DNA of 46,701 nt from a virus (taxonomy: Duplodnaviria; Heunggongvirae; Uroviricota; Caudoviricetes), in the IMG/VR virus record IMGVR_UViG_3300045988_115807. One strand, written 5' to 3'. Under the pieces are notes generated by a model, which ran no database searches, was not told the origin of the DNA, and was given only the letters and a program-made list of their open reading frames with translations. How positions within the stretch are numbered: position 1 is the stretch's first letter; each line of letters starts with the position of its first letter. The position numbers were made by a program, and so were the translations under genes. This document shows, one piece after another, positions 21,192-25,631 of the stretch.

Positions 21192-23093
21192 ATGAGCAAA
21201 GTAAAAATCGGTGAATTAATAAACTCACTTGTTAGCGATGTTGAGTCAATAGATAACTCTGACCGTCCTCAAGGGGAGAAAACAAAAAAAATAAAGGCTG
21301 TTGCATTAAAATTTAAAAATGCATTATTTAATGACAAGCGAAAGTTTAGGGGGAAAGGATTAGAAAAAAGAATTACAGCCAACACATTCAATGCCTATAT
21401 GAGCAGGGCCAGAAAACGGTTTGATGATAAACTTCATCATAGCTTTGAAAAAAATATACATCGCCTATCTGAAAAGTATCCTTTATATAATGAGGAGCTA
21501 TTGTCATGGCTTTCTCTACCTGCTGCCGATATTCGCCAGAGAATGTCAGCTTTACAGGCAAAATTAAAATTAATTCTCCCTCTATCAGAAGATTTATCTA
21601 ATATCAGAATTGGCGATAACAAAAGTCATAATAAGTTATTGAAATTATCAAATAAATATAAAGAGTGGCAATTCGCCATTTCTGATTTAACTAGCGATAA
21701 CTGGAAAGATAAGCGCGATTATTTATATAAATTACTACAGCAAGGATCTGCCTTACTTGAGGAGTTGAATCAGCTAAAAGTTAACCATGAGATTCTCTAT
21801 CATCTTCAACTAAGCCCTGCCGAACGTGCATCTATCCAGCAACGATGGGCGGACGTTCTGCACAATAAGAAACGTAACGTGGTGGTCATTGATTACCCTA
21901 AATATATGCAAGCTATTTACGATATTATAAATAGCCCTGCTACATTAAATAATCTAAACACTCGTTCAGGTATGGCTCCTTTGGCATTTGCACTTGCTGC
22001 ATTGTCAGGAAGACGAATGATTGAGATTATGTATCAAGGTACATTTACTGTTTCTGGTAAGTATACCGTTGATTTTTTAGGCCAAGCTAAAAAAAGAACT
22101 TCTGATAATATAACCAGAAAAATATATACATTATGCGAAGCAAAAACATTTGTTTATTTAATAAATGTACTTCGCTCATGCCCAGCAGCATCTGATTTTG
22201 ATGATGTCGTTAAAGGTTATGGAGATAACGACACACGCTCTGAAAACGGACGTATTAATGCCATATTAGCAAAGGCTTTTAACCCGTGGGTTAAATCATT
22301 TTTTAAAGATGACCGCCGTGTTTATAAAGATAGTCGTGCTATTTATGCCCGTATTGCGTATGAAATGTTTTTCCGCGTAGATCCTCGTTGGAAAAACGTA
22401 GATGAAGATGTTTTCTTTATGGAAATTTTAGGCCATGACGATGAAAACACTCAATTACACTATAAGCAATTCAAGCTGGCCAACTTCTCAAAGACATGGA
22501 GGCCAAATACTGGAAACGAAAATACCAGGCTGGAAGCATTGCAGCAGCTTGATGACGAAATGCCTGGATTCGCCAGAGGAGATGCCGGGGTTCGTCTGCA
22601 TAACACAGTTAAGCAGCTGGTAGAGCAGGACCCCTCTATAAAAATCACGAACAGCACTCTAAGAGCGTTCAAATTTAGCCCAACAATGATTAGTCGATAC
22701 CTGGAATTTGCTGCTGATGCTCTGGGGCAATTTGTTGGCGAAAACGGACAATGGCAACTGAAAATAGATACTCCAGAAATCGTTATGCCTGACGAAGAAG
22801 AACTGGAAGCAATACCTGAACTGGCGGATGAATTATCAGAGGATGACGATCTGGATGACGACGAAATTGAGATAGAGGAAGAGGAAGAGGAAGAGGAAGA
22901 TAGCGTAGAAGAACAGCAACCGCCTGCACCTTCTTCGCCTGTATCTAAGCCGGTATTTAAGCCGGTGAGAAATATTGGTGATGGCTCATACGTTGTTGAG
23001 TTTCATTATAATGGCCAGAATTATGCGTGGTCCGGCAGTGCAAACAGCCCCATGTCAGCAATGCAGTTAGCATGGCTGACATATTTCGGTTAA
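21192..23093 (+). CDS. telN: protelomerase TelN (telomere resolvase)
   Basis: 633 aa; MSKVKIGELINSLVSDVESIDNSDRPQGEKTKKIKA...RSGMAPLAFALAALSGRRMIEIM...HDDENTQLHYKQFKLANF... matches N15 TelN from memory; acidic Glu/Asp-rich C-terminal stretch. Confidence 0.95.
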   Translation: MSKVKIGELINSLVSDVESIDNSDRPQGEKTKKIKAVALKFKNALFNDKRKFRGKGLEKRITANTFNAYMSRARKRFDDKLHHSFEKNIHRLSEKYPLYNEELLSWLSLPAADIRQRMSALQAKLKLILPLSEDLSNIRIGDNKSHNKLLKLSNKYKEWQFAISDLTSDNWKDKRDYLYKLLQQGSALLEELNQLKVNHEILYHLQLSPAERASIQQRWADVLHNKKRNVVVIDYPKYMQAIYDIINSPATLNNLNTRSGMAPLAFALAALSGRRMIEIMYQGTFTVSGKYTVDFLGQAKKRTSDNITRKIYTLCEAKTFVYLINVLRSCPAASDFDDVVKGYGDNDTRSENGRINAILAKAFNPWVKSFFKDDRRVYKDSRAIYARIAYEMFFRVDPRWKNVDEDVFFMEILGHDDENTQLHYKQFKLANFSKTWRPNTGNENTRLEALQQLDDEMPGFARGDAGVRLHNTVKQLVEQDPSIKITNSTLRAFKFSPTMISRYLEFAADALGQFVGENGQWQLKIDTPEIVMPDEEELEAIPELADELSEDDDLDDDEIEIEEEEEEEEDSVEEQQPPAPSSPVSKPVFKPVRNIGDGSYVVEFHYNGQNYAWSGSANSPMSAMQLAWLTYFG

Positions 23094-23104
23094 AGCATAC
23101 AGTA

Positions 23105-23135
23105 AAGGCACCGAATTAACGGTGCCTTGTTGTGT
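23105..23135 (+). terminator. putative terminator after telN
   Basis: AAGGCACCGAATTAACGGTGCCTT hairpin followed by GTTGTGTG (weak U-tract). Confidence 0.4.
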
Positions 23136-23264
23136 GACCTACCTCGCCTGCCCCCTGCAAAGGGCAGAAGTAACGGAGGAAACGCGGCTGCAACCACAGA
23201 CATCACCGCCCCGACTGCGAGGCTTCCCTTCTCTAAGAAGGGCATAAATTCGGGCTGGTCAACC

Positions 23265-24047
23265 CTATTTATTGGTGATTTCTGCTGGCTTTAGCTGCGC
23301 GGATAACTGCTCAAGTTTTTGAACTGCCAGTTCAAAATGCGCGGGTAACGCCTTTTCCAGATCAGAGTTAATATCGGTGATGGGTAAATCACCACACGAC
23401 ATACTCCGCCTACCCCCACGAACAACATCACGCAACAACTCTCGTTCATACGTGCGCATGTTCCCCAATGCCGACTCAGCAGCCGTCAAAATCCGGCGCA
23501 GTTCTGCCGTAATTGCTGGCAAATCATCAACCGTTATGGGGTTCGGGGATGGATTACGACACGCCCGACGCAAAGCTAACCATACACCGCTAATCCAGGC
23601 ATTTCGGTACTGAAAACTTTGTGCTATATCGTTAATCAGCCCTCGCAGATACTCTTTCTGCCTCCAGTTCAACGGCTCCGCTGCTCGCATTGGCTCAGGC
23701 TCGATGTAAACGTACTCTCCATTTTTGCGAATAGAGGGCAAGACTTCGTTCGTTACCCATTTGCGAAACCGCCAAGCTGTTGTGCCTTGCTTCACCGCGT
23801 CACGGCAGCGGAGGATCAGGGTGTATAGACCTGACTCTGAAATAATATTTAGCTTTTGCTCTCCGCCAGGGGTGTAACTTAAAGTTACACCCTTTTCATC
23901 CTCATCCAGAGACATTAGCGCCTTCCGGGAATTAACGAGTCTTAAAGCATCACATACATCCTTAGCCACAAACCACGGCTCACCGTTAATCATCACTACA
24001 CGAACCTGATGCTCTTCCTGAAAGGAAAAGACTGCTAACGCGCTCAT
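23265..24047 (-). CDS. Bro-N domain antirepressor-like protein
   Basis: N-terminal ...VRVVMINGEPWFVAKDVCDALRLVNSRKALMSLDEDEKG... is typical of Bro-N/AntA phage antirepressor domains. Confidence 0.8.
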   Translation of the reverse strand: MSALAVFSFQEEHQVRVVMINGEPWFVAKDVCDALRLVNSRKALMSLDEDEKGVTLSYTPGGEQKLNIISESGLYTLILRCRDAVKQGTTAWRFRKWVTNEVLPSIRKNGEYVYIEPEPMRAAEPLNWRQKEYLRGLINDIAQSFQYRNAWISGVWLALRRACRNPSPNPITVDDLPAITAELRRILTAAESALGNMRTYERELLRDVVRGGRRSMSCGDLPITDINSDLEKALPAHFELAVQKLEQLSAQLKPAEITNK

Positions 24048-24277
24048 TCAGCCTCCTTATCGCGCAGCAAGTGCGACGAGAGAGACGCAGAATATCCCTG
24101 TGCTTCATGCGTTAACTCACACGCAATCTGCAGAAGTTTTCCAGCCTCTGAGAGGTAAATCGACGCCTCACAACTGGAGACTGTCCGATGGGCTGATGAT
24201 ACGAGCGCATAGACCTGAGCCAGACGTTCATCCAACGATTCCAGCAGGCCAACAGTGTTCATTTTTACCTGATTCAT
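24044..24277 (-). CDS. hypothetical protein (77 aa), second gene of the antirepressor operon
   Basis: ATGA overlap with the downstream antirepressor and with the upstream small ORF, indicating translational coupling. Confidence 0.6.
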   Translation of the reverse strand: MNQVKMNTVGLLESLDERLAQVYALVSSAHRTVSSCEASIYLSEAGKLLQIACELTHEAQGYSASLSSHLLRDKEAE

Positions 24278-24438
24278 GCAGCCACCTCGCGCACCGGAAT
24301 ACGGGCAGACAATACCAGGACAAACCGGCTGGCGAACTGGCGACGAGCTTCCCGTTCAGATGACGCGATAGTGGAAAGATGATGAATGTGGGACTTTTTG
24401 TCTGTGCGAACGACTGCCGCAAATTTGAATTTGAACAT
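24274..24438 (-). CDS. small ORF (54 aa), first gene of the antirepressor operon, icd-like position
   Basis: Hand-translated: MFKFKFAAVVRTDKKSHIHHLSTIASSEREARRQFASRFVLVLSARIPVREVAA*; GGAG about 12 nt upstream; stop overlaps the next start. Below the ORF-track size cutoff. Confidence 0.45.
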   Translation of the reverse strand: MFKFKFAAVVRTDKKSHIHHLSTIASSEREARRQFASRFVLVLSARIPVREVAA

Positions 24439-24700
24439 GGTATGCACTCCGTTTTATTGGTCGTGCTACCACCAGAGTTGCGAATCTCTTTATTGGTGGT
24501 AGCCCAGGCGGGGTTCGCAATACCGGTAAACGAAGAAACCGGCCCGACCGAAGTCAGCCCCACCTGAGCCACCATAATTCGGATATGCGCAGGTCTATAC
24601 ACACAAAAAAACACGCTGGCGCGTGTTGTGCGCTTCGTTTTGCCAGGATTGCGAAGTCCCGACTGCGGGATTTACCGCAGCGAGGTGACTTTACCTCCAA
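24439..24700 (-). ncRNA. structured leader of the antirepressor operon; candidate C4/CA-type processed regulatory RNA
   Basis: Minus strand has TTGACG-18nt-TAAAGT promoter-like hexamers near 24700-24670, a hairpin plus U7 (ACACGCGCCAGCGTGTTTTTTT) near 24630-24606, and a 10-bp stem GCTACCACCA / TGGTGGTAGC just upstream of the small ORF's RBS. Confidence 0.3.
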
Positions 24701-24737
24701 AACGACGCACACGTCAATAATTTGCAAAGACATTTTA

Positions 24738-24769
24738 CCCCGTGACCAGTCACGGGGACAGGTGTTTTT
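24738..24769. terminator. hairpin between the antirepressor leader and the lipoprotein gene
   Basis: CCCCGTGACCAGTCACGGGG perfect 20-bp palindrome, followed on the plus strand by ACAGGTGTTTTTA. Confidence 0.35.
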
Positions 24770-24818
24770 ATAGTTTGCTTGAACAAACGATCAGAACATG
24801 AACAATGTTATTGTTCCG

Positions 24819-25631
24819 TTATAAGAAAGCCTCACGCGAACGGAACACCCACTCTAGCTGTACTGGATAAATTTCTCCCGTTTTAATATTTATTAGGCGC
24901 GCGGCTAATAACTCACCCATAAAAACCTGAGTTTTATGGCTCATATCTGACGGGTTAAAAATAGTAGGTGATGTTATATCAATATGATTACTGCTTAACC
25001 CATTTATCTTTGCTAAATATTCAATTCTAAGGTCTTTTACATTAACATCTTTTGGTATTTGTCCTTTTATATCAATATCTGCCCATATTGTTTCAGGGTT
25101 CCCTTCATTTATTTGTGTACTACCAAAGATAATTTCGGCACCTAAAGTATTTAACACTTCTACATCAGCAGATATTCCAAAAGCATTAGCACCAACATAG
25201 CTTCCATGCTTTGTTATTTCAGAGGAATCGACATGAAAACCATACCATCCAGACATATCTCGAGATGTTATCACGCTATCACTACCGCTATTCTCAACAA
25301 AATCACGGTTAAGATATGTTCCTGAGTATGTGATACTTCTAGGGATAGACAAACCTTGAGATGTTAAAACGTTGTTGTATGGCGCGTATGTTAATGAGTG
25401 AACGACATATCCACGCCATGAACCATCATCTATCTTTGATGCAATAATTCTATTAAATTCCTTACCTGTGAGTATTTTGCTGCTAAAATCACCAACAGAG
25501 TTGATAGGTACTCTTTTTTCTTTTTCGAATTTATACTCAACGTCCGTTGATGCCTTATTATCATATTGATAAGTGCATCCAGATAATAACAAGATAGAGA
25601 GTAATAAAGCTGTTGTTTTTTTGTTACGCAT
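24819..25631 (-). CDS. hypothetical lipoprotein (270 aa), AT-rich moron
   Basis: MRNKKTTALLLSILLLSGCTYQ... has a signal peptide with lipobox LSGC; the gene is visibly more AT-rich than its flanks, with an AT-rich upstream region and a hairpin downstream. Confidence 0.8.
   Translation of the reverse strand: MRNKKTTALLLSILLLSGCTYQYDNKASTDVEYKFEKEKRVPINSVGDFSSKILTGKEFNRIIASKIDDGSWRGYVVHSLTYAPYNNVLTSQGLSIPRSITYSGTYLNRDFVENSGSDSVITSRDMSGWYGFHVDSSEITKHGSYVGANAFGISADVEVLNTLGAEIIFGSTQINEGNPETIWADIDIKGQIPKDVNVKDLRIEYLAKINGLSSNHIDITSPTIFNPSDMSHKTQVFMGELLAARLINIKTGEIYPVQLEWVFRSREAFL

Follow-up and report, generated by a model that had tools for sequence, protein, structure and literature searches.

A probable immA locus in an N15-like telomere phage, with an IsrK/SeqA-type leader module and a C4-family antisense RNA upstream of icd, antA and antB

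Here we describe the antirepressor operon of an N15-like telomere phage (IMG/VR record IMGVR_UViG_3300045988_115807; genus Ravinvirus, going by the nearest records), which very probably represents its secondary-immunity ('anti-immunity', immA) locus. The DNA analyzed is a window of 46,701 nucleotides (nt), to whose positions all coordinates refer, and the operon elements lie on its minus strand. On that strand a promoter-like site is followed by an IsrK/SeqA-type leader module, a C4-family RNA and the genes icd, antA and antB (Table 1). The operon adjoins a protelomerase-like open reading frame (ORF) of 633 amino acids (aa; 21192..23093, plus strand), which is convergent with antB, and the arrangement as a whole is that of the N15-type immA locus (promoter, small RNA, icd, antA and antB, convergent with the protelomerase gene).

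A first-pass annotation, made from the sequence alone, had recognized three genes of 54, 77 and 260 codons with ATGA stop/start overlaps and a Bro-N domain in the last product, and all of these are present, with ATGA at both junctions. The 54-aa Icd (cell-division-inhibitor homolog) shares 94% identity with the C-terminal 54 aa of N15 gp32 and 87% with phiKO2 Gp29 ('icd'). AntA shares 63% identity with N15 gp31 and 66% with phiKO2 Gp28 ('AntA antirepressor'), and AntB shares 74% with N15 gp30 and 76% with phiKO2 Gp27 ('auxiliary anti-repressor AntB'). The 260-aa protein, taken earlier for the antirepressor, does carry the Bro-N domain; in the naming of N15 and phiKO2 it is the auxiliary AntB, and it is the 77-aa AntA that bears the name antirepressor. 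Going by annotation and literature, AntA and AntB would counteract the CB prophage repressor, and Icd would inhibit cell division (PMC4488713, PMC10612081). In the database record of the Klebsiella phage Kpn74 (1479..2982), three small opposite-strand 'hypothetical protein' coding sequences (CDSs) are drawn over the leader and antB is split into two overlapping CDSs, a pattern that points to an over-annotated RNA region plus a frameshift or an error in sequencing.

Table 1. Features of the operon and its flanks, in window coordinates (SD, Shine-Dalgarno sequence; energies are those of predicted folds)
Feature	Position	Strand	Details
-35-like hexamer	24717..24712	-	TTGACG; equivalent of N15 Pa; identical in 13 of 14 relatives, TTGACA in ARM81ld
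-10-like hexamer	24693..24688	-	TAAAGT; 18-nt spacer; TAAAGT in 11 of 14 relatives
IsrK/P4-SeqA-type module, 76 nt	24681..24606	-	Rfam RF01394, 52.8 bits (gathering threshold 50), full length
Module hairpin 1	24681..24662	-	4 pairs with compensatory changes
Module hairpin 2	24661..24644	-	followed by a linker, then the terminator hairpin
a1	24655..24648	-	UUCGCAAU; loop of leader hairpin 2; 8-bp perfect complement of AUUGCGAA
b1	24640..24633	-	AAACGAAG; linker of leader module; 8-bp perfect complement of CUUCGUUU
Intrinsic-terminator-like hairpin with U7	24627..24605	-	AACACGC-GCCA-GCGUGUU; stem 24627..24610, T-run 24611..24605; -10.0 kcal/mol
C4-family antisense RNA, 88 nt	24579..24492	-	Rfam RF01695, 82.3 bits (gathering threshold 45), model 1-87 of 87, E = 8.9e-15
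b'	24535..24528	-	CUUCGUUU; recognition segment in the 12-nt loop of C4 hairpin 2
a'	24521..24514	-	AUUGCGAA; recognition segment in the single-stranded joint from C4 hairpin 2 to the closing stem
10-bp stem	24503..24494 with 24474..24465	-	arms GCUACCACCA and UGGUGGUAGC; inner 3-bp stem; a2 in 8-nt loop
a2	24484..24478	-	UUCGCAA; downstream complement of a'; in the 8-nt loop of the 10-bp-stem hairpin
SD/AUG hairpin (predicted)	24472..24437	-	24472..24463 with 24447..24437; buries icd GGAG and AUG; -14.7 kcal/mol alone
b2	24454..24447	-	AAACGGAG; downstream complement of b' (one G-U pair); includes icd SD GGAG, 24450..24447
icd, 54 aa	24438..24274	-	first gene of the operon; cell-division-inhibitor homolog; PHROG 1743, 4.5e-20
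antA, 77 aa	24277..24044	-	ATGA overlap with icd; SD GAGG; PHROG 6301 and 10889
antB, 260 aa	24047..23265	-	ATGA overlap with antA; SD AAGGAGG; Pfam Bro-N, 9.9e-22
Likely bidirectional terminator	23105..23128	.	9-bp hairpin AAGGCACCG-UUAAUU-CGGUGCCUU between the convergent antB and protelomerase genes

The leader preceding icd had been described as highly structured, which folding bears out: 262 nt fold with a predicted energy of -103.9 kcal/mol (z = -5.2), and none of 200 shuffled sequences folds as well. A scan of the whole window at Rfam gathering thresholds gives exactly two matches, RF01695 and RF01394, both of which lie in this leader, adjacent to each other and on the same strand. The RF01695 match, which spans the full length of the model, identifies a homolog of the N15 CA RNA, the P4 CI RNA and the P1 c4 RNA, as the first-pass annotation had anticipated in proposing a scan for the C4 family. 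That annotation had expected a small RNA from 24440-24700, an interval wider than the RNA itself, which spans 24579..24492. The C4 RNA starts 26 nt after the leader module and folds into a 17-bp closing stem and two inner hairpins with a 3' ...ACCACCA tail; a tRNA-like stem followed by CCA is visible in its sequence (..ACCACCA, 24500..24494). In the alignment of related phages this structure is conserved with compensatory changes, the closing stem being 100% paired with four compensatory pairs and hairpin 1 having four as well, and the RNA is accompanied by paired sites both upstream and downstream. C4-like sequences of ∼72-81% identity also occur in many Stx-converting, P88/Xuanwuvirus-like and other lambdoid phages, mostly under CDSs labelled antirepressor, Rha or 'hypothetical'; among these only LC710661.1 annotates a 'C4 antisense RNA'.

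The RF01394 match passes its threshold narrowly, with the two hairpins and the terminator of the family all present. The hairpin with a U7 tract noted in the first-pass annotation is present as described; it is not a mere leader hairpin, forming instead the terminator end of this separate IsrK/SeqA-type module. It is kept in 42 of 45 related leaders, and corresponds to the 'putative rho-indep. transcription terminator' of the N15 record and the 'terminator' of the phiKO2 record. An antiterminator competing with the U7 hairpin was sought in the predicted folds and none was seen; the terminator forms there by default. IsrK is a structural homolog of SeqA (PMC4825925), and IsrK and C4 together have been described as structural homologs of P4 seqA and CI RNA, with similar systems used by P1, P7 and N15 (PMC3632133). 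The same pair of models matches in N15, YDC107_1, phiKO2, PY54, five further Klebsiella telomere phages, the Aeromonas phage phiARM81ld and 10 IMG/VR contigs.

The C4 RNA carries two recognition segments, a' and b', each of which is complementary to one site in the leader module (a1 and b1) and one site downstream of the C4 RNA (a2 and b2). The downstream site b2 overlaps the SD sequence in every relative examined. The recognition segments vary between phages, and all of their partners vary along with them. In predicted duplex energies across 14 leaders, cognate combinations average -30.3 kcal/mol against -19.6 kcal/mol for non-cognate combinations at the upstream sites, and -25.3 against -18.1 kcal/mol at the downstream sites. 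Across 45 distinct leaders the corresponding values are -32.1 against -22.8 and -27.7 against -21.5 kcal/mol, graded by the number of modules shared. The cognate mean was reached in none of 20,000 permutations, for both leader sets and on both sides. In the window the duplex of leader and C4 RNA comprises ∼25 bp (-27.6 kcal/mol). A pattern search of viral contigs gave 56 loci. An exact 7-mer test for a1 (positive in 24 of 45 leaders) proved too rigid, because N15-type and Kpn74-type a1 segments pair one base out of register, and duplex energies were used instead. Exact occurrences of the 14-mer TTATGGTGGCTCAG in genome contigs were chance matches from unrelated phyla only, and were not used.

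Column-wise comparison in a MAFFT alignment gives the same picture. Taken together, the intramolecular structure and a'-a2 are paired at 97.7%, and both sides have changed in 17 pairs; slid controls reach 34-47%, and none of 500 shuffles does as well. For a'-a2 alone, 96.9% is paired and five of seven pairs show changes on both sides, while the a1-a' columns are 91.8% paired with five of seven pairs compensatory; the a1-a' counts are slightly lowered because the alignment sets the window a1 one column off, owing to a 2-nt insertion. Differences between close leaders cluster in the six sites: between the window and the IMG/VR leader L006 they fall at 21 of the 64 positions in these sites and at 16 of 266 elsewhere (p = 6.5e-8). 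The 45 telomere-phage leaders contain at least 7 a-types and 16 b-loops in at least 25 combinations, although the six sites interleave along the DNA. The pair found in the window (a' UUGCGAA with b' CUUCGUUU) occurs among these leaders only in its own near-identical group. This mixing of a and b modules resembles P1/P7 heteroimmunity, and is probably under-described for telomere phages; as an addition to what is known it is incremental.

Two further helices span the stretch from the 3' end of the C4 RNA to the start of icd. The 10-bp stem had been read in the first-pass annotation as sequestering the region near the ribosome-binding site. The stem is present, ∼10 nt upstream of the SD-proximal target site, with 94% of cells paired and three pairs changed on both sides, well above slid controls; the contact with the SD is provided instead by the predicted intermolecular pairing of C4 with b2 over GGAG. 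The 10-bp stem and the C4 closing stem share a strand (the 5' arm of the former, the 3' arm of the latter) and are mutually exclusive. The predicted SD/AUG hairpin, which shares 24472..24465 with the 10-bp stem, is 92.7% paired, compared with 22-58% in slid controls, and shows four compensatory pairs, each from a single sequence; it is not the minimum-free-energy fold in phiKO2 or PY54. The 10-bp stem thus excludes both the C4 closing stem and the SD/AUG hairpin. The state with the C4 RNA folded and the ribosome site closed is predicted to be the more stable, at -65.6 kcal/mol, as against -59.9 kcal/mol with the 10-bp stem enforced. Such a chain of three helices could act as a switch coupling RNA folding and processing to the opening of the icd ribosome site. 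It is kept here as a prediction, because the compensatory changes are few, each coming from a single divergent sequence, and because the SD/AUG hairpin is not the best fold in phiKO2 and PY54.

The promoter-like site proposed earlier (TTGACG-18-TAAAGT) is present and ends 7 nt 5' of the isrK match, the first structured element; scans for promoters and terminators pick out this site and the U7 hairpin. It is conserved among 14 relatives, though the bare match is at the level of chance. Twenty nt upstream of its -35 hexamer lies a perfect palindrome, CCCCGTGAC-TG-GTCACGGGG (24738..24757, minus strand), whose core CGTGACTGGTCACGG is kept in N15, phiKO2 and other E. coli and Klebsiella telomere phages. 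Its left outer arm varies without compensation and no U-run follows it; its appearance is that of a protein-binding site or an insulator, not of an RNA helix. Eight relatives (L001, L002 and L016-L021) have two palindromic GATC octamers, CTGATCAG-GTT-CTGATCAG, ∼60-80 nt upstream of the -35 hexamer, of which the window retains a degenerate version (∼24781..24795). These octamers upstream of the immA promoter could be a Dam/SeqA-sensitive site or a regulator site.

The locus is identified as immA by the orthology of its three proteins and of its leader, whose DNA is 81.5% identical to that of N15 over 361 nt and 100% identical to that of Escherichia phage PhiR46_1. The immA operon of N15 was reportedly described by Ravin, Svarchevsky and Deho in 1999 (Mol Microbiol 34:980), in the order Pa, cA/CA RNA, icd, antA, antB. 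The kind of system is thus already known, since the locus is the ortholog, in a close relative of N15, of one described in 1999; the copy in the window has its own recognition sequences. In reviews immA is given as the AntA, Icd, AntB operon of N15 and phiKO2 (PMC4488713, PMC10612081), and a small CA RNA is stated to regulate the N15 antirepressor negatively (PMC10732415, citing Ravin et al. 1999). The window shares with N15 the gene order, the site beside the protelomerase gene (telN), the isrK and C4 pair of Rfam matches and the position of the terminator. It differs in a' (UUGAGAA in N15, UUGCGAA in the window) and b' (CUUCUUGU in N15, CUUCGUUU in the window), with all four target sites changed to match the recognition segments, and in its upstream neighbor, a lipoprotein-like ORF in place of gp33. 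Predicted cross-pairing between the window and N15 is ∼8 kcal/mol weaker than cognate pairing, so the specificity of the two systems is probably different.

YDC107_1 (CP025712.1) shows 85-90% identity at the locus. Its record holds the immA-telN region twice, as mirror images around fragmented protelomerase CDSs. A second immA system in this phage was considered and rejected, since the second place holds the same genes mirrored at the telomere, in all likelihood because the assembly read through a hairpin telomere end.

The P4 immunity region (PLE, seqA, cI/CI RNA, seqC) shows the same succession of an isrK match (60.8 bits), a C4 match (74.9 bits) and an Icd-like peptide with 50% identity to the window Icd, and likewise has one set of RNA segments that pairs with a site upstream and another downstream (PMC4825925, PMC3632133). 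It differs in that the genes controlled are replication genes (the alpha operon) rather than antirepressors, and in the gap between leader module and C4 RNA, which is ∼108 nt in P4 and 26 nt in the window. In the P4 record (NC_001609.1, 841..1356) the CI RNA a' is UUCUCAC and the seqA loop GUGAGAA, which is the same a type as in the Klebsiella phage NAR688 and the IMG/VR leader L006, and the Icd-like peptide is encoded after CI, inside the old 137-aa 'cI gene product' CDS.

The immI system of P1 and P7 (c4, icd, ant1/2) is said to go back to Citron and Schuster in 1990. It resembles the locus described here in that its C4-family RNA comes from its own leader and has a1/b1 and a2/b2 target pairs, one target covering the ribosome site. 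Further shared features are that icd comes first among the genes and is coupled to the antirepressor, and that a few RNA bases set the heteroimmunity (PMC12197685 in part). The antirepressors are unrelated in architecture, with a small AntA and a Bro-N AntB in the window, and a tblastn search with the window Icd (E ≤ 1e-3) returned 21 phage records, none of them P1 or P7. Salmonella Gifsy-1 (isrK, orf45/STnc1160, anrP; Hershko-Shalev et al. 2016, PMC4825925) likewise has a leaky terminator in its IsrK module, then a processed C4/CI-like RNA complementary to IsrK, and an antirepressor coupled through ATGA to an upstream ORF. There, the coupled ORF (orf45) and the C4-like RNA overlap, and translation is activated by the short IsrK, whereas in the window icd and antA precede the Bro-N protein and no conserved open frame runs through the C4 RNA in the ten leaders examined; the exact Gifsy-1 mechanism accordingly does not fit. 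The C4 match, the immA orthology and the conserved contacts between RNA and targets with their compensatory changes bear out the earlier proposal that the operon mirrors the logic of P1 c4-icd-ant and N15 immA.

By analogy with P1 c4, P4 CI and N15 CA, from which the processing, the translational block, the polarity and the direction of the a1/b1 effect are drawn, the locus would operate as follows. A transcript begun at the promoter-like site would open with 76 nt that form the IsrK/SeqA-type module and end in the intrinsic terminator. Transcripts reading through it would carry the tRNA-like C4-family RNA (CA RNA in N15), which, as in the homologous systems, would be excised by RNase P and accumulate. 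Its hairpin-loop segment b' and joint segment a' would pair with b2 and a2 on the downstream mRNA, and since b2 contains the icd SD, translation of icd would be blocked. Because antA and antB are joined to their upstream genes by ATGA overlaps, both would be silenced as coupling is lost and as Rho-dependent polarity acts on the RNA left untranslated. With the antirepressors kept off, the main prophage repressor would be protected. The a' and b' segments may also pair with a1 and b1; these sites and the leaky U7 terminator could reinforce repression (as with P4 seqA) or titrate the RNA in a decoy or activator role (as with Gifsy-1 IsrK). A translational block appears to be the most likely mechanism by the precedents of P1, P4 and N15. 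In P1, c4 blocks the ribosome site of the ant mRNA (PMC12197685), while in P4 the CI RNA brings about premature termination by pairing with seqA and seqC (PMC4825925).

Several points weigh against this explanation. The CA RNA of N15 may itself act mainly by translational block or mainly by termination. The local SD/AUG hairpin could bury both SD and AUG without any trans-acting RNA, and the C4:b2 contact may hence not be the only or the main block. The promoter match (9 of 12 positions) is by itself at chance level, with two such sites in the window against 2.1 expected in shuffled sequences. The Rfam model of the upstream target sites (RF03163, c4-a1b1), which overlaps the isrK module, scores 24.8 bits in a permissive scan of the window, below its gathering threshold of 46.7, yet the sites are complementary to a' and b'; it passes in six relatives. 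In the window there are an insertion of 2 nt and a changed loop in leader hairpin 2.

If termination were the main control, C4 RNA pairing with a1/b1 on the nascent leader would raise termination at the U7 hairpin in an attenuation-like, autoregulatory manner, and a2/b2 would be secondary. The position of a1/b1 directly upstream of the terminator (b1 ends 5 nt before the stem), a complementarity at least as strong as that of a2/b2, the conservation of the terminator (42 of 45 leaders) and the reported need for P4 seqA in establishing lysogeny (PMC3632133) all fit this view. Termination at U7 would, however, also end synthesis of the C4 RNA itself, which is located downstream; the terminator already forms by default, with no competing antiterminator predicted, and the overlap of b2 with the SD in every relative examined is hard to explain unless translation is targeted. 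We consider it unlikely that termination is the main control. Somewhat easier to entertain, if still doubtful, is that the short terminated leader RNA (24681..∼24606) serves as an anti-antisense decoy in the manner of Gifsy-1 IsrK, sequestering a'/b' of the C4 RNA or of the unprocessed transcript, so that an excess of it would switch on antirepressor translation. The module passes the Rfam isrK threshold and the leader-C4 duplex is extensive (∼25 bp, -27.6 kcal/mol), and in Gifsy-1 pairing of the short IsrK with ∼30 nt of the downstream STnc1160/orf45 region goes with a rise in AnrP translation by a factor of more than 100 (PMC4825925). Against this, the Gifsy-1 way requires a translated ORF that overlaps the C4-like RNA and is coupled to the antirepressor, of which there is no conserved counterpart here, and the P4 counterpart seqA promotes rather than relieves immunity (PMC3632133).

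Older records imply that the stretch from the terminator to icd codes for a protein repressor and not for an RNA (the N15 'cA secondary immunity repressor', gp32 of 96 aa): U63086.1, AF064539.1 and YDC107_1 annotate CDSs across it, and the label of PHROG 1743 is 'transcriptional repressor'. Followed upstream from the icd ATG, the frame nevertheless meets a stop after 5 codons in the window, after 4 in phiKO2, after 9 in NAR688 and after 16-17 in YDC107_1, 020009 and PY54 (4-17 codons for six leaders out of the ten examined), and indels change its phase between relatives. The substitutions are compensatory in RNA helices, and the Rfam C4 match covers the full model length. We have accordingly rejected the protein-coding reading of this stretch, including the cA and gp32 annotations, and regard a protein repressor as exceedingly improbable. 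The immA reading, with a C4-family RNA acting mainly on icd translation, is preferred. An elaboration of it, in which a/b and their four targets behave as interchangeable cassettes of a modular RNA lock, combined with the three-helix switch and a decoy leader RNA, is put forward tentatively, as a proposal that is rather unlikely to hold in full.

Downstream of antB, the phiKO2 record has a 'putative bidirectional' terminator at the position matching the hairpin at 23105..23128. A 51-aa ORF (23090..23245, minus strand) lies 3' of antB, where it shares sequence with the inter-operon hairpins and with the last part of the protelomerase gene. Its match in PHROG is 35352 (function unknown; 2.4e-25), and YDC107_1 has a counterpart with 88% identity over 43 aa; the ORF may be a real gene or simply conserved terminator DNA. 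On the other flank, between the replication genes and immA, a 270-aa ORF (24819..25631, minus strand) starts with MRNKKTTALLLSILLLSGC (lipoprotein signal and lipobox) and has no match in Pfam or PHROG. In Klebsiella telomere phages this place is taken by telocin toxin-immunity cassettes (PMC12042878), and the lipoprotein-like ORF may be a cargo ('moron') gene.

Continued repressor activity in a resident N15-like prophage probably hinges on this locus, which probably also sets which related phages can override each other's immunity. Under the modular-lock proposal, the short terminated leader RNA would be a decoy that sets the threshold. In the GenBank records of close relatives, the stretch labelled 'hypothetical protein', 'secondary immunity repressor' or 'transcriptional repressor' should be annotated as two RNA elements and a 54-aa icd. 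The co-varying triplets (a1/a'/a2 and b1/b'/b2) constitute a ready table of natural compensatory mutants, which could be used for testing target choice by C4-family RNAs and for asking whether telomere phages, common in Klebsiella and E. coli, use the types as heteroimmunity groups.

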